A stretch of 64,000 nt of DNA from Dehalococcoidia bacterium (lineage in GTDB: Bacteria; Chloroflexota; Dehalococcoidia; Lucifugimonadales; UBA3495), in the NCBI GenBank assembly GCA_965216065.1, contig CBDCFB010000001.1, positions 1,442,218-1,506,217 of the forward strand, read 5' to 3'. The notes beneath the pieces are model-generated. The model was not told the origin of the DNA and did no database searches. It saw only the letters and a list, made by a program, of their open reading frames with translations. A program made the position numbers and the translations under genes. Of the stretch, positions 4,299 to 63,260 are shown piece after piece (position 1 is the stretch's first letter; each line of letters starts with the position of its first letter).

Positions 4299-4438
4299 AA
4301 CAATCTCCCAAACGCGTGTTCTATCATGTTGCGCCCAATGTAGAACATCCGTACATTGAATGTCAACGCTTTTCCCGCCCTATTTGGTAGAAATGTTCTA
4401 TTCTAGTGGGGCCATGGATTTCCGTAGCTGGAGGACCG

Positions 4439-5218
4439 ATGATCGAATACGAAACGATGACCTACGAGAGGAAGGGCAGGACCGCATACATCATGTTCAA
4501 CCGCCCGCAGTCTCTGAACGCCGTGAACCGGCAGTTCGAGGAGGACCTGCACGAGGCGCTGCTGGAATTCGACACGGACGACGAGGCGTGGGTCGGCATC
4601 ATCCACGGTGCCGGGCGTGCTTTCTGCGCGGGTGCGGACATCAAGCAGCGGTTCGTGGAGATAACTCCGCAGGAGAGCGCCCGGAGGGAGCGGGGTCCAA
4701 ATCCGGAGGGCTACCTGGGCCGCACGGTGAACTGGAAGCCGGTCATCGCCGCGGTGCACGGGTACGCGCTGGGCGCCGGTATCGTAATCGCCGCTGAATG
4801 CGACATGATCGTGGCCTCGGAGGACGCCCGGTTCGGCATAACGGAAACGAAGCGGGGGTTGGCTGGCGGCAGGATCTGGGCCAAGGTCAACGCCTTCATG
4901 CCTTCGAAGATCGCCAGCGAGATGGTCATCACGGGCGAACCGGTGGAGGCCGCGGAGCTCTACCGCCTGGGCCTGATCAACCGGCTGGTGCCGAACGGGT
5001 TCCATCTCACCGCGGCCGAAGCGCTGGCTGCGAAGGTGCTGAAGACGCCGCCGCTGTCGGCCCGGGTGGGCGTGAAGCTGACAAGGCGCCAGTGGGTGCA
5101 GACCGGCGCCGAGGTCGATATGCAGACCCTGCCACTGAAGCTGCACATGAGCGAGGACTTCAAGGAGGCCAGCCGCTCATTTGTGGAAAAGCGGCCGCCG
5201 GAGTACAAGGCCAGATAG
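4439..5218 (+). CDS. enoyl-CoA hydratase/isomerase (crotonase) family protein
   Basis: GGAGGA RBS before ATG 4439. Motifs FCAGADIK and AAVHGYALGAG. Confidence 0.85.
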   Translation: MIEYETMTYERKGRTAYIMFNRPQSLNAVNRQFEEDLHEALLEFDTDDEAWVGIIHGAGRAFCAGADIKQRFVEITPQESARRERGPNPEGYLGRTVNWKPVIAAVHGYALGAGIVIAAECDMIVASEDARFGITETKRGLAGGRIWAKVNAFMPSKIASEMVITGEPVEAAELYRLGLINRLVPNGFHLTAAEALAAKVLKTPPLSARVGVKLTRRQWVQTGAEVDMQTLPLKLHMSEDFKEASRSFVEKRPPEYKAR

Positions 5219-5235
5219 AAGAGAGTACACAAAAA

Positions 5236-5272
5236 TTCCCTCCCCCAGCGGGGGAGGGTTAAGGTGGGGGAG
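5236..5272. repeat. GEG-type hairpin repeat
   Basis: TTCCCTCCCCCAGCGGGGGAGGGTTAAGGTGGGGGAG. Same architecture as the copies at 29031..29101, 55142..55184 and 58204..58240. Confidence 0.7.
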
Positions 5273-5657: not shown

Positions 5658-6275
5658 TCAGTTGAGGGCCGCCGATTTCGTCTGCGCACCCCGCAGAAGC
5701 AGCGAGTTTATCGCCTGGACGCTGGCGGGGTGGACCGGCCTTCTCTGCTGCAGGCGCAGGGCCGACTCCCGGCAGAGGAACTCAAGCACGGCCTGGCTCA
5801 GGCTCTCGTTGGCTATGTGACGCAGTTCCTGCTGGTAGGGGTATGACTTTATCTTGCGAGGCTCCAGCTTGTCGGCGATGAATACCAGCAGTCCCAGGGG
5901 CGTCATGTCTGCGCTGCCGGTGGTGTGGTAGCGGACAGCGGCGAGTATCTCCTCGTCGACCAGCCCGTCGTCGTGGCGCAGCAGCTCGGCTCCCAGTGGC
6001 CCGTGAAGAGTCACCGGCGCCCGCCTCTCGATGTCTAGGACGGGCATATCGAATCGCATCGCCTGCCGCAGAATCTCCGACTTCTTGGCGGCTCTCGCCA
6101 CGTCATGACCCAGGATGGCCAGCTCGGCCCTTTCCTCGTCGATGCCATGGCGGCTTGCCAACTCCAGCCCCAAATCACGAGTGCGGAAGATGTGGGCCTT
6201 GAGCTTGTTCGGCAATGACTCGAATCGCTCCGCGAACCTGTCGTTGACGATCCGATAGACCGGTCCAGGGGTCAT
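5658..6275 (-). CDS. yqeK: HD-domain hydrolase, YqeK-like (bis(5'-nucleosyl)-tetraphosphatase family)
   Basis: 205 aa with the HD motif ILGHDVAR and ...RYHTTG... typical of YqeK. Confidence 0.7.
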   Translation of the reverse strand: MTPGPVYRIVNDRFAERFESLPNKLKAHIFRTRDLGLELASRHGIDEERAELAILGHDVARAAKKSEILRQAMRFDMPVLDIERRAPVTLHGPLGAELLRHDDGLVDEEILAAVRYHTTGSADMTPLGLLVFIADKLEPRKIKSYPYQQELRHIANESLSQAVLEFLCRESALRLQQRRPVHPASVQAINSLLLRGAQTKSAALN

Positions 6276-9209: not shown

Positions 9210-9297
9210 TCACCCCCACCGCAACCCTCCCCCTCAGGGGGAGGGAGATTGGCAGAGCGCCCTAGCCCAGTCCTTCCCCTGAGGGAGAGGGAATTGG
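9210..9297. repeat. two GEG-type hairpin repeats
   Basis: CCCTCCCCCTCAGGGGGAGGG and CCCCTGAGGGAGAGGG hairpins lie between the cupin and aminotransferase genes. Confidence 0.7.
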
Positions 9298-10490: not shown

Positions 10491-10538
10491 CCCCTCTCCA
10501 TTGAGGGAGAGGGCGGGGGAGAGGGTGAAATCCCGGTG
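10491..10538. repeat. GEG-type hairpin repeat
   Basis: CCCCTCTCCATTGAGGGAGAGGGCGGGGGAGAGGGTGAAATCC. Confidence 0.7.
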
Positions 10539-13847: not shown

Positions 13848-14107
13848 CAGGGCAATCGCGCTGTAGTTATTCGCAGCCGTTCACACCGTCATTACCGCTA
13901 AACATGTCCTCGACTCGATCGGGGAGCGGGAATCCAGTGGCTGGAAATTCCAGTGTTCTGCGCTCATCGGAGAACCGCCAGCCTAGCCCACCGGAGACAG
14001 CCAACAACGCGAAAACCTTGGATTCCCGCTTTCGCGGGAATGACGGTGGAGGGGCGGGAATGACGGGACAGCGCCATAGCTGGTTCGGTTAAAACACGAT
14101 TGCACTG
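13848..14107. mobile_element. MITE-like element type B, 260 bp, inside the arg operon
   Basis: Ends are CAGGGCAATCGCGCTG... and ...ACACGATTGCACTG. It is the reverse complement of the 795..1010 element. Flanks GTATAAACCA and GCGCAAACCA match at 7 of 10 positions. Confidence 0.7.
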
Positions 14108-16506: not shown

Positions 16507-17787
16507 ATGGCCAATGTGCGCGCGTTTCGAGGTTGGCGTTACAACCCCGCCATGGTTGAAGACATGGCGGCAGTGCTCTGTCCGCCCTACGACATGATTA
16601 CCCCATTGATTCAGCAGGCGCTGATGGACCGGCACCCCCTGAATGTAATCAACCTGGAGGCGGGCGAGGGCCTGGATTGGGCATCCGATCCGGCGGACCG
16701 TTACAAGGAAACCGCCGGGCGCTTCGAGGAGTGGCTCAAGGAAGGCGTGCTGCAGCAGGACGATGAGCCAGCCTATTACCTGATGCGCCACGGCTTTACG
16801 CTTGGAGGCCAGCAGCGGTCACGTCTGGGTCTGATAGCGTGCGTTGGGATCGAGGATTACGACACACGGCAGGTACTACCCCACGAGTTCACCGAGGCGC
16901 CGGTGGTGCGCGACCGCGTGAAGCTGATGGGATCGGTCTCTGCGAACATCAGCCCCATCATGTCGATCTACAGGGACGCAGACAACGAACTGGCGGCCCT
17001 GTTCGAGCAGGTCATGGCCCAGGATCCCGAGGTGGACGCCAGGGATGAGTTCGGCTCGGATGCCACCATGTGGCGCATTGCGGACCCGGAAAGCGTGACC
17101 GCTATCAGCCGGTTCTTCTCAACCCGGCCGGTATTCCTGGCAGACGGGCATCACCGGTACGAGGCGTCGCGGCACTACCGGATGGCCCGGCAGGCTGAGG
17201 GGGCGGATTCGTCGTCGAGTGCACACAACTATGTGATGATGACGCTGATCGCATTCGACGACCCCGGCCTCGTTGTGCTGCCGTATCATCGCAATCTGAG
17301 CGGCCTGAACGACTGGCAGCTGGCGAGGGTGAAGGAACGGCTGAACGAGGTGTTCGAGACTGAACCTATGGAAGGACGTTCAGCCGAAGAGATCGTGGCG
17401 CTGGTGGAGGAGCGGGGGCGCTCCGGGCGGGTGATGGCCGCGCTGGGGCCCGATGGAGCACAGCTGCTCACGCTGCGCCCATCTGCCATCGGCGACGACT
17501 GGGGCGCGATGGCGGTGTCGGAAGCGTGGGTGCTGGAGGAGAGAATCCTCCGCCCGGAGCTGGGCGAGGCCACATGGCACCACCTGGGTTTCCTGCACGA
17601 CCACGATGAGGCGGCAGAGGGTGTGGCCGATGGGTCGCTGCAGATGGCCTTCCTGATGAAGCCCTTCCCCATGGACGCATTCGAGGACATCGTCGGGCAG
17701 GGGCAGCGGCTGCCGCGAAAGTCCACCTTCTTCTACCCCAAGCTGCCAACGGGGCTGGTCATCAACCGGATAGACGGGGAGATCTAG
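16507..17787 (+). CDS. DUF1015 family protein
   Basis: 426 aa with MANVRAFRGWRYNP... and FLADGHHRYEAS, typical of DUF1015. Confidence 0.75.
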   Translation: MANVRAFRGWRYNPAMVEDMAAVLCPPYDMITPLIQQALMDRHPLNVINLEAGEGLDWASDPADRYKETAGRFEEWLKEGVLQQDDEPAYYLMRHGFTLGGQQRSRLGLIACVGIEDYDTRQVLPHEFTEAPVVRDRVKLMGSVSANISPIMSIYRDADNELAALFEQVMAQDPEVDARDEFGSDATMWRIADPESVTAISRFFSTRPVFLADGHHRYEASRHYRMARQAEGADSSSSAHNYVMMTLIAFDDPGLVVLPYHRNLSGLNDWQLARVKERLNEVFETEPMEGRSAEEIVALVEERGRSGRVMAALGPDGAQLLTLRPSAIGDDWGAMAVSEAWVLEERILRPELGEATWHHLGFLHDHDEAAEGVADGSLQMAFLMKPFPMDAFEDIVGQGQRLPRKSTFFYPKLPTGLVINRIDGEI

Positions 17788-25744: not shown

Positions 25745-25766
25745 AAACGGCCCCGAGCTCAGGCCG

Positions 25767-25890
25767 TAGGGTTTTTTAGTTGTCGACTAACCCGTTGGTC
25801 CTGAGCCTGTCGAAGGGCCGTCCGCCCATGGTTCGACAAGCTCGCCACGAACGGACTCGCAAGGTTGCCATAGACAACTAAAAGACCCTG
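25767..25890. mobile_element. MITE-like element type A' (LSNH core), degenerate left end
   Basis: Ends are TAGGGTTTTTTAGT... and ...ACTAAAAGACCCTG. The core is homologous to 34153..34276 and 63118..63260. Flanks match at 7 of 10 positions. Confidence 0.65.
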
Positions 25891-28164: not shown

Positions 28165-28430
28165 CAGGGTAATCGCGTCTGGAAGGCTGGAATCTCATTT
28201 TGCTGTCATTTGCTCCTTGCCAAGCTTGGCGCTCCTTCTCAAACATTAGTTCTATATGTATAACGGATGGCAAACAGAACCCGACTGACATCCCTGTGGG
28301 TCTCTTGAAACAGCGGCCAGCCCGGAATGTCCAGAAATGACCGGGAAAACGAAAAAATCAGCCCCTGCAAACCGGCAATGTCGGCTCATCCGACCCAACC
28401 TGCTGAGTTGCTGAATTCAAGACGCGATTG
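28165..28430. mobile_element. element with type-B termini but unrelated AT-richer core
   Basis: The left end CAGGGTAATCGCGTCT and right end AGACGCGATTG are inverted. TCCTTGGTATCAACG is directly repeated on both sides (28150..28164 and 28431..28445). Confidence 0.5.
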
Positions 28431-28533
28431 TCCTTGGTATCAACGGCCAACCCAATCGATGAAGCCCACCCCTGATATAATTTCGCCAGGATACGGACTT
28501 GGACTTCGGACCCGGACTCCTTGGAGGTCTTAC

Positions 28534-29028
28534 ATGGGAGAAATGCTGCAACAGGGGGGTCGTTTCCCCCAACTGGAACTGAACCTGCTGGACGGCGGCA
28601 AGCTGACCCTGCCGGAAGACGCCCCCAGCCGCTACACGGCTTTGCTGTTCTACCGGGGACACTGGTGACCCTACTGCCAGCGGCAGTTAGCCGCGTACGA
28701 GGCAGCCAAGGCAGAGCTTGATGCGCTGGAAGTCAGCGTCTACGCCGTCAGCGTCGACGATGAGGAGCACGCGAGAGAGGTGCAGGGCAAAGGCCTGTCC
28801 TTCCCTGTTGCCTACGGGGCGACCAAGGCCGACGCCGACGCCATCGGGGCCTGGTGGTCTGACGATAGGGGCGGTTACGTGCAGCCCGCCGAGTTCCTGC
28901 TGAGTCGTGGCGGTGTGGTCGCAGGGGCAATGTACGCCTCCGGACCTGTGGGCCGCATGGGCGCCGACGAGGTCATTCGCTTCATCCAGTTCCGCGAGAA
29001 CCGCCGGCGCCAGGAAGAAGGCGAATAA
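28534..29028 (+). CDS. candidate selenoprotein: peroxiredoxin-like (PRX_like2 / AhpC-TSA) with W-U-P-Y-C, TGA 28666..28668 read as Sec
   Basis: GGAGG RBS 6 nt before ATG 28534. ORFs 28327..28668 and 28780..29028 are in the same frame, separated only by one TGA. Sequence reads ...ALLFYRGHW-U-PYCQRQLAAYE..., where homologues have WCPYC. Confidence 0.7.
28674..28705 (+). promoter_or_regulatory. SECIS-like two-tier stem-loop 3' of the in-frame TGA
   Basis: Lower stem CUGCC/GGCAG (28674..28678 / 28701..28705). Upper stem GCGGC/GCCGC (28680..28684 / 28690..28694). Apical loop AGUUA begins 17 nt after the UGA. Confidence 0.5.
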
Positions 29029-29030
29029 TA

Positions 29031-29101
29031 TCCCCTGCCCCTCAGGGGGAGGGTTAGCACAAAATCCCCTCTCCCTGTGGGAGAGGGTCAGGGTGAGGGC
29101 G
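29031..29101. repeat. two GEG-type hairpin repeats
   Basis: TCCCCTGCCCCTCAGGGGGAGGGTTAG and TCCCCTCTCCCTGTGGGAGAGGGTCAGGGTGAGGGCG. Confidence 0.75.
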
Positions 29102-29111
29102 AACCCCAACT

Positions 29112-29936
29112 ATGAACGAGACCAACCAGCAACTGGTAGACATGATGGAGAGCGTCTGGCGCTCCATCGGCGAGTTGTGCGACGGGCTGACCGAGGCCGA
29201 GTGGAAGACACCCACCGATTGTCCCGGGTGGTCGGTACAGGACCAGGTATCGCACCTGGCTGGCTCGGAGACCGGCATCCTGGGCGATACTGACCCCGAC
29301 CACGCCCCCAGCGAAGAGGTGCTGGCCCACACCCGCAGCGAGCAGGGACGCCACAACGAGATCGTCGTGGACTTCCTGCGCCCCTGGGCCGGGGCGCAGG
29401 TGTTGTCGGACTTCCGGGCCAAGACCGCCCGCCGCATGGAGTTCCTCCACGGGCGGAGCGACGACGATTTTGCGGCCGAGATGCAGACCCCCGTGGGGCC
29501 AGCCCCCATGGCCGAGTTCATCAGCATCCGCATAATGGACGCCTGGGTGCATGAGCAGGACATCCGGCGTGCCCTGGATCGGCCGGGGCACTACGACAGC
29601 CCGGCGGCGGCCCATGCACTGAATCGCATCATCCGCGCCATGCCCTTTGTCGCCGCCCGTCGCGCCCAGGCCCCCGACGGCGCCACGGTCGTGATAGACG
29701 TTGCGGGTCCGGCAGGCCGGCGTGTTTCCATTGGTGTCGAGGGCGGAAGAGGCCGGGAGCTGGATGAAGCGCCGGAAACCCCCACGGTTCAAATCAGCCT
29801 GGAAGCGGAGACCTTCGGCTGTCTGGGCTGCGGTCGCTGGGACCCCGGCGAAGTGCTCCAGTCCGGGAGGGTGTCCATCGAAGGAGACGCCGCCCTGGGC
29901 GAGGCCATTGTCCGGCAGATGAACATTATGCCCTGA
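29112..29936 (+). CDS. DinB/MDMPI-family (maleylpyruvate isomerase N-terminal-like) protein with SCP2-like C-terminus
   Basis: 274 aa with WKTPTDCPGWSVQDQVSHL, typical of the mycothiol-dependent maleylpyruvate isomerase-like family. Confidence 0.7.
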   Translation: MNETNQQLVDMMESVWRSIGELCDGLTEAEWKTPTDCPGWSVQDQVSHLAGSETGILGDTDPDHAPSEEVLAHTRSEQGRHNEIVVDFLRPWAGAQVLSDFRAKTARRMEFLHGRSDDDFAAEMQTPVGPAPMAEFISIRIMDAWVHEQDIRRALDRPGHYDSPAAAHALNRIIRAMPFVAARRAQAPDGATVVIDVAGPAGRRVSIGVEGGRGRELDEAPETPTVQISLEAETFGCLGCGRWDPGEVLQSGRVSIEGDAALGEAIVRQMNIMP

Positions 29937-29954: not shown

Positions 29955-30187
29955 CTGCACTGAGAAAATCTCTCGAAACTCGTTTGCCCCACAAGCCGTC
30001 GTTCCTGCGAAAGAACTTCGCCCCCGGCTCGATCGGGGAGCGGGAATCCGCGGCTTCCGTCCTTCTGACCGCCCTTAACCGCCAGGGCTGATTAGGCCTC
30101 ATCCGGCAACCGTCAGGCCTAATTTTCGGCCACTGGATTCCCGGCTATGCGGGAATGACGGGTTGATTTCGCTGCATAACTGTCCTG
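29955..30187. repeat. REP/type-B-related repeat cluster (approximate bounds)
   Basis: CTCGATCGGGGAGCGGGAATCC and GGATTCCCGGCTATGCGGGAATGACGG hairpins. The right end ...CATAACTGTCCTG resembles a type-B terminus. Confidence 0.5.
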
Positions 30188-34152: not shown

Positions 34153-34276
34153 CAGGGTCTTTTAGTTTTCTATGGGAACCTTGCGAATCCGTTCGTGGTG
34201 AGTTCGTCGAACCATGAACGGACGGCCCTTCGACGGGCTCAGGACCAACGGATTTGTCGACAACTAAAAGATCCTG
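34153..34276. mobile_element. MITE-like element type A' (LSNH core), 124 bp
   Basis: Ends are CAGGGTCTTTTAGT... and ...ACTAAAAGATCCTG. Flanked by perfect CTCCCGGAGG at 34143..34152 and 34277..34286. Confidence 0.8.
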
Positions 34277-34286
34277 CTCCCGGAGG

Positions 34287-34481
34287 CAGGGCAATCGCGT
34301 CTTAACATTCGGCACACTAATCGGGCAGGCATGGCTGCAAAAATTCCCGTTATCCCTGCGAATGCAGGAATCCAGAGGTCAGTTGCCAGTGAATCACGAC
34401 TTGCCTCGAGGCCCTTGGAATCCCGCTTTCGCGGGAATGACGGATTATGGGGCCCTCAGCATTTGGGACGCGATGGTCCTG
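34287..34481. mobile_element. MITE-like element type B, 195 bp
   Basis: Ends are CAGGGCAATCGCGTC... and ...GACGCGATGGTCCTG, with REP hairpins inside. Flanked by CTCCCGGAGG at 34277..34286 and 34482..34491. Confidence 0.8.
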
Positions 34482-40685: not shown

Positions 40686-40693
40686 GATCATCC

Positions 40694-40788
40694 GTCATTC
40701 CCGCGGAAGCGGGAATCCAGAGCCTTTAACTAAGCTGAATCAGGCCAGACAAGCGGGAATCCGGCGCCTTTACTTAAGCTGAATCAGG
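40694..40788. repeat. REP hairpin plus ~43-bp-period duplication inside the ACIII operon
   Basis: GTCATTCCCGCGGAAGCGGGAATCCAG, then GCGGGAATCC(A/G)G(A/C)GCCTTTA(A)CT(T)AAGCTGAATCAGG twice. Confidence 0.75.
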
Positions 40789-48543: not shown

Positions 48544-48614
48544 GTGGCAAGCAATGAAGGGCAAGCCTAGTAGCGAAAGTGGTCCGGACTAGGTGGTTTA
48601 CCGGCGGCGCATCC

Positions 48615-48641
48615 GGTATTCCTGCGAAAGCAGGAATCCAG
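48615..48641. repeat. REP hairpin
   Basis: GGTATTCCTGCGAAAGCAGGAATCCAG. Confidence 0.7.
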
Positions 48642-48756
48642 CGCCACCGTATTCGGTTCGGCGACATGCCTCAATCACCTGATTTGGGACCCTGCTCCTC
48701 AGTCGTATACCAATGGGCACAGCGCTACAGATCCACTACAGCCGAGGACTCCTGAC

Positions 48757-52604: not shown

Positions 52605-52637
52605 ACCCTCTCCCCGGAGGGAGAGGGTACCCTGACC
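52605..52637. repeat. GEG-type hairpin repeat
   Basis: ACCCTCTCCCCGGAGGGAGAGGGTACCCTGACC. Confidence 0.7.
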
Positions 52638-53923: not shown

Positions 53924-54049
53924 ATCTCCACCCCCGCAGACTTCCCTCTCTCGAACGCCGAGAGATAGGGTGAGCGCGTTCTCTTCCTGACTGTTAAAGA
54001 CGGAATTTTAGCGGAATTTCTGCCGTTGACCAGCCCCGCCTCTCCGGAC

Positions 54050-55020: not shown

Positions 55021-55184
55021 AGAACTATCTCAAAACGACCATGGTGTCGTGCATTTGAACGGCTACCGCGTAGAACCTCTGGATTCCTGCTTTCGCAGGA
55101 ATGACGGTGAGGGACGCGGCGAGTCTTGAGATAGTCTCGTATTCCCTCTCCCGGAGGGAGAGGGTGAGGGTGAGGGTGAGGGCG
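55021..55184. repeat. composite repeat: AACTATCTCAAAAC-type end, REP hairpin (55081..55105), GEG hairpin (55142..55184)
   Basis: GGATTCCTGCTTTCGCAGGAATGACGG and TTCCCTCTCCCGGAGGGAGAGGGTGAGGGTGAGGGTGAGGGCG. Confidence 0.65.
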
Positions 55185-55274: not shown

Positions 55275-56657
55275 TCATGGTGTTGGCGAGGCCTCCGGAC
55301 TCGAGTCCTTCCTTCCCGGAGGGACGGCGGCCAGCACCATCAGGGCAGCCAGCCCAATCGCCGAGCCGAAGATCACAAAGGGCGCCCGGTATCCCCCGCC
55401 GACGTCGAACATGAACCCCGATACGACGGGGCCGATGGCCTGCCCGCCAATCTGCGCCGGCAGCGTCAACCCCCGTATGGTTCCCAGGTGCTGCCGGCCA
55501 TAGTAGTCCGCCCATGCCAGGCGCAGCATGGTGTGCAGGCCTCCCACACCGGAGCCAAAGAGGAACCCGAAAACAATTCCCCAGCCCAGTTGCTGGCTGA
55601 AGGCGATGCCGAACACACCTCCGGTCACCCATCCCGCCGAGATTGCCAGCATCATACGCACCGGCAGCCGTCGGCCCACTCCCGACCACACCATCCCGCC
55701 CGGGATCTGGCCCAGCGCAAAGGCGGTCGCAACCAGCGCGGCCCGTCCGTGGGATACCCCGGCGTCGACGTAGTGGGCTGTCTGGTGCAGGCTCACGCCC
55801 GCCTGGGCCATGAAACCCACCATCGAGAAGAAGGCAAGTATCCAGAAGGCCGGGGTACGGAGCGCTTCGTGCACGGTGTAGTCGGTGTCCCGCCAGGTCG
55901 AGGACTGGGCGGCCTGGGCGGTTGTCGGGCTGGTCGACGGTGCCTGTTCCTGTTTCCCTTCAGGGGCCGGGTCGGGTGCCAGGCCCAGATCCTCAGGCCG
56001 GCGGGCCATCAGCAGCAGTGGAGGCAGCACCCCCGTCGCCACGGTGAACACGCCCAGGGTCACCCACGCTGAACGCCAGCCCAGGACGTCAATGAATATG
56101 GCGGCGGCGAGAGGCAGCAGGCCAAGCCCCACGCCCTGAACAGCCCCGAAAGAGGCCAGTGCCATCGGCCTGCGCCGGATGAACCAGTTGCTGATGGCCG
56201 TCGTCGTCCCCAGTTCCAGGGGACTGGAAAATACCGCCCGCCCCGGTATATAGATCGCGTAGAACGACCAGGCCTGCGATACCACCGCCAGCAGCAGCGC
56301 GCAGGTACCGACCACTGCCGAGCACCCGGCCAGGATTACCCCGGACCCGTACCGGTCGATCATCCGCCCGGCAAAGGGCGACATCAGGAGTCCGCATACC
56401 GCGCCTAGGCTCACGGCTCCGGAAAACAGGCCCCGCGACCAACCGAACTCCTCGGTCATCGGAATGACGAAGACCGAAAGCACCGCGACGGACGCCACAG
56501 GCCGCGCCCCGAAGCTGGGAAGACTAGCCATCGCAAAGATGACCCACCCGTAATATACGGGCAGCCGCCCCGCCAGTCGTTCCCGGACAGTGCTGCCGCT
56601 CGGCATTCCCCCACCCGGCTCCGTGTTCACGAATCCGGCGTAGTGTAACACCGCCAC
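55275..56657 (-). CDS. MFS transporter (start may be the internal ATG near 56606)
   Basis: 460 aa, multi-TM. Confidence 0.8.
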   Translation of the reverse strand: MAVLHYAGFVNTEPGGGMPSGSTVRERLAGRLPVYYGWVIFAMASLPSFGARPVASVAVLSVFVIPMTEEFGWSRGLFSGAVSLGAVCGLLMSPFAGRMIDRYGSGVILAGCSAVVGTCALLLAVVSQAWSFYAIYIPGRAVFSSPLELGTTTAISNWFIRRRPMALASFGAVQGVGLGLLPLAAAIFIDVLGWRSAWVTLGVFTVATGVLPPLLLMARRPEDLGLAPDPAPEGKQEQAPSTSPTTAQAAQSSTWRDTDYTVHEALRTPAFWILAFFSMVGFMAQAGVSLHQTAHYVDAGVSHGRAALVATAFALGQIPGGMVWSGVGRRLPVRMMLAISAGWVTGGVFGIAFSQQLGWGIVFGFLFGSGVGGLHTMLRLAWADYYGRQHLGTIRGLTLPAQIGGQAIGPVVSGFMFDVGGGYRAPFVIFGSAIGLAALMVLAAVPPGRKDSSPEASPTP

Positions 56658-56754: not shown

Positions 56755-58560
56755 ATGGCCCGCACATTCCGGCTGGCGCTGGCCCAGATCAACCTCACCG
56801 TCGGAGACCTCCCCGGCAACACCTCCAGGATGCTGGAATGCCTGCATCGGGCCCGCGAAGCCGGCGCTGACCTTGTCGCCTTCCCGGAACTGGCAACCAC
56901 CGGCTATCCCCCTGAAGACCTCCTGTTCAAGAAGTCCTTCATCGACGCGAACCTCCTGGCTATGGAGCAGGTCGTGTCCGAGTCCCACGGCATGGCCGTA
57001 GTTCTTGGATATGTTCAGCCACGAGAGTCCGGCATCGCCAATTCCGCCGCCGTCGGCCACGACGGGCGGTTGATCGACACCTACGACAAGATATTCCTGC
57101 CCAACTACGGCGTCTTCGACGAGGAGCGCTACTTCGTAAAGGGCAACGTCTGTCCCGTTTACGAGATCGGTGGCGTCCGCATCGGTGTGAACGTATGCGA
57201 GGACATCTGGTTTGCCGAAGGACCATCCGCAGTGCAGCGCCAGGCAGGGGCGGAACTGATTGTGAACATCAACGCCTCTCCCTTCCACGCCGGCAAGAGC
57301 GCCTACCGTCGCGACAGCATCGTTGGCAGCCGCGCCACCGAGAACGGCCTGTTCGTCGCCTACCTGAACACCGTCGGCGGGCAGGACGAACTGGTCTTCG
57401 ACGGCAACAGTGTGGTCTGCGACCCATGGGGAGGTGTCGTCGCCCGCGGTCCGGCATTCCAGGAGTCCATGGTCCTAGCCGACATCGACGTTGATACCGT
57501 CCCGCCCCTGTCTTCCCGTCAGCGAGAGGGCGGTCAGCGGGAGGGTGAATGCGAGTCCAGACTGGCCGTTGTCGGGTCCCCCAGGGTGTTCCAGGTCTCT
57601 GGCTACCGCCCTGACCGGGAACGCCCTTCGCTCCCCCCGCCAACGCGATCCGATGAAGTGGACGAGATCGAGGAGATATACCGGGCCCTCGTTCTGGGCA
57701 CGCGGGACTATCTGCACAAGACCGGCTTCAGCAAGGCCATCGTGGGGCTCTCAGGCGGCATCGATTCCGCCCTGACCGCCGTCGTCGCTTCCGACGCCCT
57801 CGGTTCGGATAACGTGCTCGGCATCACCATGCCGTCCCGCTATTCCTCCAGTGGCAGCGTCGATGACTCCGCGATTCTGGCGCGAAAGCTGGGCATCGAC
57901 TTCTGGGAGATCCCCATCGAACCGGCCCATACCGCCTTCGCCGGGATGCTGGAGGAGCGTTTCGCCGACACCACGCCCAACGTGGCCGAAGAGAACGTAC
58001 AGGCCCGCATTCGTGGCAACGTCCTGATGACCGTCTCCAACAAGTTCGGCTGGATCGTGCTCACCACCGGCAACAAGTCCGAGATGGCCATGGGCTACGC
58101 AACTCTGTACGGCGACATGGCTGGCGGTTTCGCGGTGCTCAAGGACGTCCACAAGATGACGGTGTACGCCCTCAGTCGCTGGCGAAACGCCAACGGTCAC
58201 AAATTCCCTCTCTCAAAGGGAGAGGGTCAGGGTGAGGGCGTCCCCGGCAACGATGTGATACCCCAGGCCATCATCGACAAGCCCCCCAGCGCCGAGCTCC
58301 GCGAGGGACAGCTGGACGAGGACAGCCTCCCACCCTACGACATGCTCGACCCGGTGATCCAGGCATACGTCGAGGACGACCGCAGCTACGCCGAGATGGT
58401 GGACATGGGCTTCGACCCGGCGGTCGTGCGTCAGGTGATTGCCGCCGTCGACCGCAACGAGTACAAGCGGCGCCAGGCCCCACCCGGCGTCAAGATCACT
58501 CCGCGAGCCTTCGGCCGCGACCGACGTCTGCCCATCGTCAACCGTTACCGCCAAGTGTGA
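56755..58560 (+). CDS. nadE: glutamine-dependent NAD+ synthetase
   Basis: N-terminal CN-hydrolase domain plus a synthetase domain with the PP-loop GLSGGIDS and KPPSAELR. Confidence 0.9.
   Translation: MARTFRLALAQINLTVGDLPGNTSRMLECLHRAREAGADLVAFPELATTGYPPEDLLFKKSFIDANLLAMEQVVSESHGMAVVLGYVQPRESGIANSAAVGHDGRLIDTYDKIFLPNYGVFDEERYFVKGNVCPVYEIGGVRIGVNVCEDIWFAEGPSAVQRQAGAELIVNINASPFHAGKSAYRRDSIVGSRATENGLFVAYLNTVGGQDELVFDGNSVVCDPWGGVVARGPAFQESMVLADIDVDTVPPLSSRQREGGQREGECESRLAVVGSPRVFQVSGYRPDRERPSLPPPTRSDEVDEIEEIYRALVLGTRDYLHKTGFSKAIVGLSGGIDSALTAVVASDALGSDNVLGITMPSRYSSSGSVDDSAILARKLGIDFWEIPIEPAHTAFAGMLEERFADTTPNVAEENVQARIRGNVLMTVSNKFGWIVLTTGNKSEMAMGYATLYGDMAGGFAVLKDVHKMTVYALSRWRNANGHKFPLSKGEGQGEGVPGNDVIPQAIIDKPPSAELREGQLDEDSLPPYDMLDPVIQAYVEDDRSYAEMVDMGFDPAVVRQVIAAVDRNEYKRRQAPPGVKITPRAFGRDRRLPIVNRYRQV
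58204..58240. repeat. GEG-type hairpin repeat embedded in frame within nadE
   Basis: TTCCCTCTCTCAAAGGGAGAGGGTCAGGGTGAGGGCG is nearly identical in its tail to the intergenic copy at 29066..29101. Translated as FPLSKGEGQGEGV. Confidence 0.8.
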
Positions 58561-58654
58561 GGACCGGAACGCTTTCCCGACTGCTTGGATCGATGCCATG
58601 GAGCCTTGCTGTGGATTGAGCTGCACCGAACCGTGGGGCTCCCCTGGGCAACCC

Positions 58655-59380
58655 ATGAACATCACCGTCATCGTCCCCGCGTTCAACGAGGAAGCCTATC
58701 TCGCCACCACCCTGGACTCCATTAACGCTGCCGCAGCCTGCCTTCGCTCCAACTGCAGTGCCAGCACCGAGATAATCGTGGTCGACAACAACAGCACGGA
58801 TGCCACGGCGAACCTGGCAGCAAGCAAGGGAGCGAAGGTCGTTCACGAACAGGAGCAGGGCATTGCAAGGGCACGGAACGCCGGAGCACGCCACGAAAGG
58901 GGCGATGTGCTTGTCTTCATCGACGCTGACGTTGCCGTTCCGCCAACTCTCCTCGAGGCCATTCACGACTCAATTAGCAACCCAGCCTGCGTGGGTGGCG
59001 GAGTGGATGTGAAATACAGTCCCCAGAGCCGAATGATAAGGCTCTATCTGTGGGCTTGGCGACTCCTCGGCCGGGCAACGGGTATGGTGCAGGGAGCTAC
59101 CCAGTTCTGTCGAAAAGACTCCTTCCTCCAGATTGGCGGATACGACGAGACCGCCTGGATAGGCGAGGACGTCGACTTCTACTGGGCTCTGAGGCGACTC
59201 GCCCGGAGTACCGGCGGGAGTGTCGCGCTGATCAGGGAACCACGGGTTTACCCGTCGACCCGACGCTTCGACAGGTGGCCGCTCTGGAAGACGCTGGTCT
59301 GGACCAACCCCCTCTTCATCGCCCTGCTGCGGCGAAGGAAGCGGGCATGGGCTGGTTGGTACTCCCGTCCGGTTAGGTAG
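58655..59380 (+). CDS. family 2 glycosyltransferase
   Basis: Trimmed to ATG 58655 (MNITVIVPAFNEE...). DxD-like motif FIDADV. Confidence 0.8.
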   Translation: MNITVIVPAFNEEAYLATTLDSINAAAACLRSNCSASTEIIVVDNNSTDATANLAASKGAKVVHEQEQGIARARNAGARHERGDVLVFIDADVAVPPTLLEAIHDSISNPACVGGGVDVKYSPQSRMIRLYLWAWRLLGRATGMVQGATQFCRKDSFLQIGGYDETAWIGEDVDFYWALRRLARSTGGSVALIREPRVYPSTRRFDRWPLWKTLVWTNPLFIALLRRRKRAWAGWYSRPVR

Positions 59381-59415: not shown

Positions 59416-59533
59416 GAAACTATCTCGAAACTTGCTTCGGTCCCTAAACCGTCATTCTCGCGAAAGCGGGAATCCAGTAACACTTGCTGGTAAGTGCTCA
59501 AGGCCATCAGAGGATAATCGTTTTGAGAAAGTT
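59416..59533. repeat. short palindromic element with REP hairpin core (approximate bounds)
   Basis: The ends GAAACTATCTCGAAAC and GTTTTGAGAAAGTTGC are imperfectly inverted. The core is GTCATTCTCGCGAAAGCGGGAATCCAG (59461..59486). Confidence 0.5.
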
Positions 59534-63117: not shown

Positions 63118-63260
63118 CAGGGTCTTTTAGTTGTCGAATAACCCGTGGTTGTCGAATAACCCGTTGGTCCTGAGCCTGTCGAAGGGCCGTCCCTTCATGG
63201 TTCGACAAGCTCACCACGAACGGACTTGCTAAAGTTGCCATGGAAGACTAAAAGGCCCTG
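63118..63260. mobile_element. MITE-like element type A' (LSNH core), 143 bp, with internal 19-bp duplication
   Basis: Ends are CAGGGTCTTTTAGT... and ...ACTAAAAGGCCCTG. Perfect 10-bp direct repeat CCGCTCCGTC at 63108..63117 and 63261..63270. Confidence 0.85.

Follow-up and report, generated by a model that had tools for sequence, protein, structure and literature searches.

A repeat with the pattern of the TMECO triplex motif inserted in frame in the NAD+ synthetase gene nadE of a Dehalococcoidia bacterium

A short dispersed repeat was found inside the coding region of nadE, the gene of glutamine-dependent NAD+ synthetase, in a 64,000-nt stretch of the chromosome of a Dehalococcoidia bacterium (assembly GCA_965216065.1, contig CBDCFB010000001.1, positions 1,442,218 to 1,506,217; the whole of this stretch is called the window below, and positions are counted from its first letter). 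The sequence and architecture of the repeat are those of a TMECO-type triplex motif. The segment in nadE belongs to the repeat family, it is a derived in-frame insertion, insertions recur at the same sites in related genomes, and the gene that holds it is intact and constrained. Probably, this stop-poor repeat was exonised at structurally permissive sites of nadE and is carried there as a neutral or nearly neutral passenger.

The insertion can be read from filled and empty alleles of the same site. The closest empty allele, P0003 on the related locus L085, is 88.7% identical to nadE of the window at the nucleotide level and has the same neighbours (SIS, methyltransferase, MFS and nadE genes). 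Only two indels separate the two genes: a 15-nt duplication in the interdomain linker and the net 33 nt at the repeat. Because about 6-9 flanking nt were replaced too, the exact boundaries of the insertion are ambiguous. At least 120 protein clusters with at least 78% identity to NadE of the window fall into four forms at the site: a short form (...RWRNSHGELFG-NPDDVIP...), a form bearing KFPLPPGEGQGEGVPG, longer or nested forms, and a few in which the loop has been deleted (RWRNANA-PVIP). The preliminary description of this DNA had named the presence of the same peptide in distant NadE orthologues as the observation that would speak against an insertion. None of the 80 distant orthologues, which are 46-73% identical over 100 residues around the site and have a short loop only, contains the segment, nor do the three solved homologues 4f4h, 3n05 and 5kha. 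Judged from these alignments, the segment in nadE is a derived in-frame insertion of the dispersed repeat.

Many relatives at about 80% identity carry the segment with identical junctions, as would be the case if it were ancestral to this NadE clade or to NadE in general, with the short relatives as deletion derivatives and the likeness to a repeat as a secondary matter. This explanation is extremely improbable. Besides the absence of the segment from the 80 outgroup orthologues and the PDB homologues, deletion could not recreate the outgroup-like HGxLFG..DD of the empty alleles. Since these alleles retain HGxLFG..DDVIP, they are ancestral and not deletion products. Moreover, the DNA of the segment is a full-length family member, with the leader and 23 nt identical to another copy. 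The preliminary description had asked whether the segment is an insertion unique to this lineage: the alignments bear out an insertion, which is shared by many relatives, with carrier alleles in about 55 protein clusters, and distributed patchily on the NadE tree. In the neighbour-joining tree, P0001/2 carry the window-type allele and their sister group P0003-5 is without it.

The 37-mer TTCCCTCTCTCAAAGGGAGAGGGTCAGGGTGAGGGCG of the preliminary description is present at 58204-58240. The core of the unit, 58206-58238, reads CCCTCTCTC-AAA-GGGAGAGGG-TCA-GGGTGAGGG, followed by C, and the CACAAA(A)T leader of the unit recurs in two intergenic copies (at 5233 and 29062). Holder et al. 2015 (NAR 43:10126, PMC4666352) described TMECO, earlier named PIT (earlier work of Hoyne and Maher), as a purine-motif intrastrand triplex made of two stems and a third strand. 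The pattern is 5'-CCCTCNCCC N3-6 GGGNGAGGG N3 GGGNGAGGG[G/T/C/-]-3', with one stem mismatch permitted (PMC4666352). The core in nadE fits this pattern with one mismatch, at position 8 of the pyrimidine arm. Of the 31 copies compared in the window and the related loci, which are not all independent, 29 have the same base at position 4 of the purine arm and at position 6 of the third arm (A/A in 18, G/G in 11, 2 discordant); such covariation would be the signature expected of a mirror-repeat triplex motif. The family is likewise dispersed and multi-copy, occurs in both orientations, and has a loop 1 that differs in nearly every copy. The intergenic location of TMECO is the trait that the nadE copy does not share; it was reported as a property of the E. 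coli copies and is not part of the sequence definition. Scans of the window for Rfam families and tRNAs gave no match, and the repeat thus belongs to no curated RNA family.

Secondary structure prediction gives the unit a hairpin with a 9-bp stem, one G-U pair and a 3-nt loop (RNA, -14.5 kcal/mol, z = -3.3), and RNA folding gave no comparable fold at the empty orthologous site. The stable hairpin expected earlier in the nadE mRNA is thus upheld as a prediction. Purine arm and third arm together make a 4 x G3 quadruplex motif, and the pattern of the unit gives it the potential for a triplex or a G-quadruplex (G4). Kaplan et al. 2016 described the same sequences as HPG1/HPG2, a switch between G-quadruplex, hairpin and duplex, with "none within" open reading frames (ORFs) (PMC5100583). 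A plain G-quadruplex element was also considered as the identity of the repeat; the G4 motif is present, but the triplex motif accords better with the mirror covariation of the third arm and with published work, and the two are not mutually exclusive.

About eight other copies lie in the window, all of them between genes and on both strands (Table 1). The gene map on which they were placed is crude, with a GC content at third codon positions of about 0.8-0.88, and was checked with Pfam. The copies that had been listed as sisters of the nadE segment are true family members by alignment (A1) and pattern match, and the consensus of nine aligned copies is AAAT(T)CCCTCYCCC-N3-GGGRGAGGG-TNA-GGGTGRGGG-CG. 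Exact occurrences of the 21-mer GGGAGAGGGTCAGGGTGAGGG start at 29079 and 58218, and two more, with 1-2 mismatches, at 55156 and 55162; it had no match in 100 dinucleotide-preserving shuffles. Of the two adjacent copies near 29 kb, the first (29033-29056) is a hairpin without the third arm and the second (29067-29101) is complete, its final 23 nt matching 58218-58240 without a difference. This identity had been noticed before, with coordinates one nucleotide off (29078-29100 for 29079-29101). A copy orthologous to 55144-55184 is present in L085 and L092, in a spacer that is heavily rearranged among relatives. With about 9 copies in 64 kb, or roughly 1 per 7 kb, some 570 would be expected in the 4.09-Mb contig if the window is representative. 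The statement that the family occurs only between genes holds for the other copies of this window and fails in relatives, where four sites in nadE and the MFS gene are occupied.

These genic copies were located by aligning the DNA of nine syntenic orthologues by codon with nadE of the window. Of the 20 copies in the nine related loci, 16 are inside nadE or the MFS gene. In nadE the family occupies four sites (S1-S4), in both orientations and in two frames; the copy of the window is at S4. Seven carriers have common junctions there: CAC AAR TTC CCT CTC CCN CCG GGA GAG GGT CAG GGT GAG GGC GTC CCC GGC AAC. In L093 (P0059), the ancestral TTA TTC is kept at S4 and is followed by a different subtype in another frame (AAC ATT CCC TCT CCC CCC GGG GGA GGG TCA GGG TGG GGG), giving NIPSPPGGGSGWG; since the sister sequences are empty, this insertion is independent. 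In L089 (P0030), a second complete unit is nested in the purine arm of the first. The variant peptides at S4 include SASVVEASLVGV, LTGEGGPDANIP and LPQSEGV, with nested or alternative-frame versions IPSPSGGGLGWG. The S4 insert of L087 also has a 9-nt duplication (AAATTCCCT) at its 5' edge.

S1 is a beta-turn after residue 89. L088 has there a reverse unit, CGCCCTCACCCTAATCCTCTCCCAGAGGGAGAGGGAAC, giving RPHPNPLPEGEG, and other relatives have a different repeat (the PELVEG family, which also occurs in the window) or a third hairpin. That different repeat families share S1 points to tolerance rather than target specificity, and the hot spots are best seen as positions at which selection spares insertions rather than as targets recognised by sequence. 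Forward units in frame 2 (E[IT]PSPSGGGLGWGR) occupy S2 and S3, both in the interdomain linker, and the unit of L087 is nested. At 3979-4012 of L087 (P0009), a unit replaces the nadE stop, adds APNSLPLEGEG and ends at a TAG from loop 2 (GGGTTAGGG). A reverse unit is found inside the MFS gene upstream of nadE in L093 (877-909) and L092 (852-884); that of L093 lies in the central loop and lengthens the protein by about 11 aa, with the translation ...NAPTTTLPQREREPA.... The MFS gene of the window (55275-56657) has no TMECO-type unit. Four of the six frames of the unit are open in the TGAGGG subtype and all six in the TGGGGG subtype, and all forward genic copies in frame 2 belong to the TGGGGG subtype. 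A 48-aa concatenation of the repeat-encoded peptides retrieved 25 candidate proteins, all short and domain-less, which have no bearing on generality.

The PELVEG family was observed as a third repeat family of the window, about 80-130 nt long and containing CCTGAGCCTGTCGAAGGGC, which is readable as PELVEG (25758-25890; 34153-34285, inverted; 63148-63229). It is translated at S1 of nadE in L087/P0009, similar peptides occur in P0047, P0054, P0076, P0093 and P0106, and a piece of it lies near NadE residue 295 in L089.

Table 1. Coordinates of nadE, the repeat unit within it and other repeat copies of the window
Feature	Position	Strand	Location, basis or remark
nadE, glutamine-dependent NAD+ synthetase	56755..58560	+	Host gene; 601 codons and stop, single uninterrupted ORF
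15-nt tandem duplication, GTCAGCGAGAGGGCG / GTCAGCGGGAGGGTG	57518..57547	+	nadE interdomain linker; encodes SRQREG/GQREGE
Complete TMECO-type unit in nadE: A-rich leader CACAAAT(T), three arms, two loops, terminal CG	58198..58240	+	Alignment with intergenic copies
Net gain of 33 nt (11 codons) relative to the empty orthologous site	58207..58239	+	Pairwise DNA alignment with nadE of L085; codon alignment of ten orthologues
Pyrimidine arm CCCTCTCTC	58206..58214	+	T for C at position 8; partner in the predicted hairpin is 58218-58226
Loop 1, AAA	58215..58217	+	Most variable part among carrier alleles (GCC, TCC, ACC, TTC, CCC); codon alignment of seven carriers
Purine arm GGGAGAGGG	58218..58226	+	Watson-Crick partner of the pyrimidine arm
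Third arm GGGTGAGGG	58230..58238	+	Mirrors the purine arm; could be the Hoogsteen strand in a purine-motif triplex
Copy, GGGGGAGGG/GGTGGGGG subtype	5238..5270	+	Intergenic, ECH_1 gene (4406-5218) to HD-domain gene (5658-6275)
Reverse copy	9213..9245	-	Intergenic, cupin gene to aminotransferase gene
Degenerate second reverse copy	~9254-9297	-	Same intergenic space as the copy at 9213-9245
Copy	10492..10525	+	Intergenic, aminotransferase gene to argG
Two adjacent copies	29033..29101	+	Intergenic, ORF stop at 29028 to MDMPI-family gene start at 29112
Hairpin-only copy	52606..52627	+	Intergenic, CMD gene to SIS gene
Degenerate copy	53939-53983		Intergenic
Copy with reiterated third arm (GGGTGA x3)	55144..55184	+	Intergenic, methyltransferase gene to MFS gene just upstream of nadE
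Second hairpin family, copies	666-698, 734-768, 834-866, 945-973, 14019-14053, 30121-30166		
Second hairpin family, further copies	34346-34378, 34403-34448, 40691-40723, 48612-48644, 55067-55112, 59448-59480		

The gene that received the insert has the features expected of a functional NadE, an enzyme generally known as essential. The product shows the expected two-domain make-up, with an N-terminal nitrilase-type glutaminase (CN_hydrolase PF00795, residues 6-249, 1.9e-40) and a C-terminal NAD synthetase (NAD_synthase PF02540, residues 309-575, 5.7e-70). The latter Pfam match spans the repeat, with same-frame homology on either side, and the earlier observation that the repeat lies within an uninterrupted 601-codon ORF is confirmed with both domains in frame. 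The best PDB relatives are 4f4h, 3n05 and 5kha (phmmer against 4f4h, 1.7e-143). In 68 relatives, E45, K112, C148 and SGGIDS 333-338 are invariant; we take the first three to be the catalytic nitrilase triad and the last to be the ATP-binding motif. The ratio of nonsynonymous to synonymous divergence (dN/dS) against the nine orthologues is 0.08-0.16. By these comparisons, nadE is an intact, working gene under purifying selection.

An assembly or annotation artefact, or a nadE that is decaying as a pseudogene, has a negligible probability in view of the intact ORF, the two domains, the invariant catalytic residues and the low dN/dS. In addition, the identical 601-aa protein occurs on 12 contigs, and the four places shown are from four different sample assemblies; with the same protein in separate assemblies, an artefact is unlikely as the source of the insert. 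The 15-nt linker duplication is the sole further indel relative to the closest orthologues; it is absent from L085 and L086 and is lineage-specific. Its G-rich unit (GAGAGGGCGGTCAGCGGGAGGGTGAA) loosely resembles a decayed repeat tail, and the linker may hold an older remnant.

The repeat in nadE is read as ...NANGHK FPLSKGEGQGEGV PGNDVIPQAIIDKPPSAELR, the unit itself giving H-K-F-P-L-S-K-G-E-G-Q-G-E-G-V at about residues 482-496. This peptide is presumably translated; the tryptic peptide expected from the insert region is GEGQGEGVPGNDVIPQAIIDKPPSAELR if K-P stays uncleaved. An AlphaFold2 model, built on a shallow alignment (relatives with at least 81% identity; mean predicted local distance difference test score, pLDDT, 68), places the insert in a coil at 484-503, which follows a helix at 467-483 and precedes a short one at 504-507; at 490-497 the pLDDT is below 50. 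The model is recognisably NadE in Foldseek comparison with 4f4h and 3n05 (about 1e-40, TM-score 0.54-0.63). Among the 120 relatives the length of this loop ranges from deletion of the whole loop to about +20 aa, which bears out the position described earlier as length-variable. As for the earlier proposal of a repeat exonised as a surface loop, the in-frame derived loop is supported by the orthologues and the low-confidence coil, and the surface part is an inference.

The course of events that we propose is simple. One unit of about 40 nt would have entered nadE in this lineage, replacing a few codons of a short loop of the synthetase domain. The protein would have gained the Gly/Pro/Glu-rich stretch FPLSKGEGQGEGV between the helix that ends in ...SRWRN and the conserved VIP...KPPSAEL segment. 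Because the frame has no stop codon and the net gain is 33 nt, the gene stayed open, and the insert persists because the loop tolerates almost any length. A filter of this kind would best explain the hot spots in relatives: repeats would land widely, and only in-frame, stop-free copies in permissive loops, the linker or the C-terminus would survive purifying selection. On this account the insert would be a neutral or nearly neutral passenger rather than an adaptation of the enzyme.

Several observations weigh against this account of exonised passengers. The patchy distribution of the allele on the NadE tree would need short-tract recombination or repeated site-specific insertion. A rise in divergence from the empty sister allele is confined to some 10 codons around the insert; a longer imported tract would escape notice, given how conserved the flanks are in every lineage. 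At the junctions of filled and empty alleles a few codons are replaced, and no clear target-site duplication is seen that would speak for classical transposition. The surface exposure of the insert is deduced from a mediocre model and from indel tolerance, not from coordinates. Finally, where the amino acids are identical, third positions diverge by 0.153 in the insert against 0.330 gene-wide, and only 2% of 17-codon windows are as low; this comparison covers seven window-type carriers, which are not independent. Such a low value would not be expected of a purely neutral passenger as old as the gene lineages, and suggests selection at the nucleotide level, gene conversion from other copies, or recent spread.

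On another view, the repeat is kept in nadE for a role of the nucleic acid: its hairpin, triplex or G4, in the DNA or the mRNA, would pause translation, affect mRNA stability or serve as a recombination or replication signal, with the peptide being incidental. Synonymous third positions only about half as diverged as in the gene (second percentile) would fit such a role, and so would the conservation of the stems and third arm, with changes concentrated in a free loop 1, the covariation of purine and third arms, and the stable predicted hairpin; the single-stranded consensus also forms a triplex or G4 in vitro (PMC4666352; PMC5100583). Nevertheless, we consider this role unlikely. Close relatives do without the repeat, and the arms, intact in 5 of the 7 carriers, are eroded in L090 and L091. 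S4 accepts another frame and subtype, and other sites accept the opposite orientation, where the mRNA is C-rich. No promoter or terminator activity was found for TMECO, and in vivo dimethyl sulfate (DMS) footprinting gave no support for a stable triplex (PMC4666352). The conservation of the arms could equally reflect gene conversion among hundreds of copies, with only seven non-independent sequences compared.

Less likely still, and by a clear step, is that the GEGQGEG loop was recruited from the repeat as an adaptive feature of the protein that selection now maintains, for instance a site of interaction beside the conserved KPPSAEL segment, a contact between oligomer subunits or a flexible lid. 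The loop is retained across a large clade, with a synonymous divergence (dS) of about 0.6-1.0 between members, and the invariant KPPSAEL motif follows it at a distance of about 10-13 residues. However, the amino-acid divergence of the 17 insert codons in the seven carriers is 0.19, compared with 0.16 gene-wide and 0.07 in the flanking 80 codons, and the synonymous divergence is lower, which is the opposite of constraint at the protein level. The peptide variants and the nested and alternative-frame versions at the same place, the sister lineages without the insert and those that delete the whole loop also speak against an adaptive loop.

Among known repeat systems, TMECO is the closest. The census of Holder et al. 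counted 3610 copies in 262 proteobacterial genomes, with 23 in MG1655 and at most 143 in Enterobacter asburiae; in E. coli they were "always located intergenically". The motif had no link to transposons, phages or plasmids, and its stems were more conserved than its loops (PMC4666352). The single strand formed a triplex in vitro, in vivo DMS footprinting did not support a stable one, neither promoter nor terminator activity was seen, and local variability between strains was raised (PMC4666352). The family described here shares the pattern, the three 9-nt arms, the dispersed multi-copy occurrence in both orientations and the greater conservation of stems than of loops. It also shares adjacent or inverted pairs (29033/29067 and 9213/9254 in the window), the lack of a linked mobile-element gene and the local variability between related genomes. 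It differs in that the nadE copy lies in an ORF and many copies in relatives are genic, whereas the E. coli copies are always intergenic. The 2015 census was proteobacterial, whereas the closest named nadE relatives among the matches listed are Dehalococcoidia/Chloroflexota, at no more than 67% identity. The window, with its copy per 7 kb, is denser than E. coli or Enterobacter asburiae. On approximate genome sizes, TMECO occurs about once per 200 kb in MG1655 and once per 30-35 kb in Enterobacter asburiae. Presence and absence at orthologous sites, nesting and alternative frames here imply ongoing insertion, which neither of the two motif papers claims.

In its behaviour the repeat resembles the Rickettsia palindromic elements (RPE), which the available accounts describe as in-frame inserts in housekeeping genes (Ogata 2000 Science 290:347, 2002 Genome Res 12:808; PMC10969869). 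Both are palindromic dispersed repeats found between and within genes, in frame in unrelated housekeeping genes, where they add peptide segments at positions judged compatible with the fold. In the same accounts, RPE are about 100-150 bp long, AT-rich, restricted to Rickettsia and endowed with a longer conserved peptide per family, whereas the nadE unit has about 40 nt, is G/C-rich, has a third mirror-repeat arm and occurs across phyla; there is no sequence relationship. The repeat behaves like RPE and is not a member of them.

Two other classes were considered and not adopted. REP and REPIN sequences, mobilised by RAYT transposases, are imperfectly palindromic, high-copy, mostly extragenic repeats of 20-40 nt, often in inverted pairs (PMC3116915; PMC3733652), and their hallmark is a conserved tetranucleotide, GTAG or CGTC, at the base of the palindrome (PMC3733652). 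The present repeat is likewise short, imperfectly palindromic, high-copy, mostly extragenic and found in inverted pairs. No GTAG/CGTC tag was found in alignment A1 or in 49 copies from viral contigs, where AAAT(T) precedes the unit and CG follows it; REP sequences lack an asymmetric G-rich third arm, and no RAYT or other transposase-like Pfam domain was detected among the predicted genes of the window. MITEs that make in-frame fusions include ERIC, BOX, Correia and cyanobacterial elements (review PMC10969869). Like them, the repeat is a small non-autonomous element that may land in ORFs and may nest, but it is shorter than typical MITEs, its boundaries are ambiguous, and neither terminal inverted repeats beyond the hairpin arms nor a target-site duplication was detected; a MITE identity was set aside for this last reason and for the absence of a transposase in the window. 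The same non-autonomous character, and the ability to land in ORFs and nest, was also noted in a comparison with one further group. The small dispersed repeats (SDR) of Nostoc, reportedly treated by Elhai et al. in 2008, are said to be comparable in these respects.

The motif has a wide distribution beyond the window. In exact form, CCCTCTCCC-N3-GGGAGAGGGTNAGGGTGAGGG (30 nt specified) occurs in 45 viral or proviral IMG/VR contigs (L094-L138) with 41-73% GC, in contrast with the 2015 statement of no association with phages. With a related 73-nt query, matches were obtained in 3142 of 5426 complete E. coli genomes, the listed places being unannotated or annotated as hypothetical protein. In one of these (L139), the motif at 1500-1545 has a second, inverted motif about 60 nt upstream. 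Copies flank nadE in one Dehalococcoidia, one Chloroflexi and one gammaproteobacterial metagenome-assembled genome (MAG). The best named nadE relatives among the matches listed are Dehalococcoidia/Chloroflexota MAGs (61-67% identity), and one member of the NadE clade was deposited under the sponge Geodia barretti; a sponge-associated lineage resembling Chloroflexota would be a plausible guess. In the searchable literature, no reports were found that place TMECO-type motifs within coding sequences, describe recurrent insertion of such motifs or give them such a host range.

The surroundings of nadE are those of an ordinary chromosome. The window has about 62% GC and contains genes of arginine biosynthesis, acyl-CoA dehydrogenases, several MFS transporters, ccm genes and a possible alternative complex III, encoded as a cluster of cytochrome c, molybdopterin oxidoreductase, 4Fe-4S and NrfD proteins. 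A family-2 glycosyltransferase gene (58598-59380) just 3' of nadE is present in the window, L087, L090 and L091 and absent from L085, L086 and L088, and the repeat-bearing spacers around it are rearranged between relatives. Upstream of the double repeat at 29033-29101, two same-strand ORFs (28327-28668 and 28780-29028) resemble halves of one redoxin/peroxiredoxin-like gene and could be the outcome of a frameshift or internal disruption. A 33-nt segment of a DUF1015 gene (16582-16614 in 16507-17787) is 76% identical to nadE 58330-58362 (PPYDMLDPVIQ), probably by chance or through a shared short motif.

Other repeats are common in the window as well. A second hairpin family, (CCGTC)ATTCCCGCGAAAGCGGGAAT(CCAG), has at least 12 copies in both orientations (Table 1), intergenic where checked and in some cases part of larger composite repeats. 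A 131-nt inverted repeat (826-956/13925-14055, 89% complementary), built partly from ATTCCCGC hairpins, brackets about 13 kb with acyl-CoA dehydrogenase, argG and aminotransferase genes.

The finding leaves the picture of NAD metabolism unaltered, and selfish repeats in genes are already established, so its importance is moderate. It maps four insertion-tolerant positions in NadE. The filled and empty sites are insertion-polymorphism evidence that TMECO motifs move, where the two motif papers found no function and no sign of mobility, and the stop-poor composition of the motifs lets them be absorbed as protein loops, much as RPE are. A bolder proposal can be entertained only tentatively, and we would give it perhaps a modest chance: that TMECO-type motifs, hitherto regarded as static and strictly intergenic curiosities of Proteobacteria, are an actively spreading cross-phylum repeat, which would enter coding DNA so frequently as to produce protein length polymorphism at every permissive loop of a housekeeping enzyme and whose three-arm structure would be kept at the nucleotide level within ORFs by selection (on hairpin, triplex or G4) or by gene conversion. 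The orthologous filled and empty sites offer a test bed for such maintenance of structure within coding RNA and DNA. If the proposal is true, this clade would be a natural system for finding the mechanism by which TMECO motifs are mobilised.

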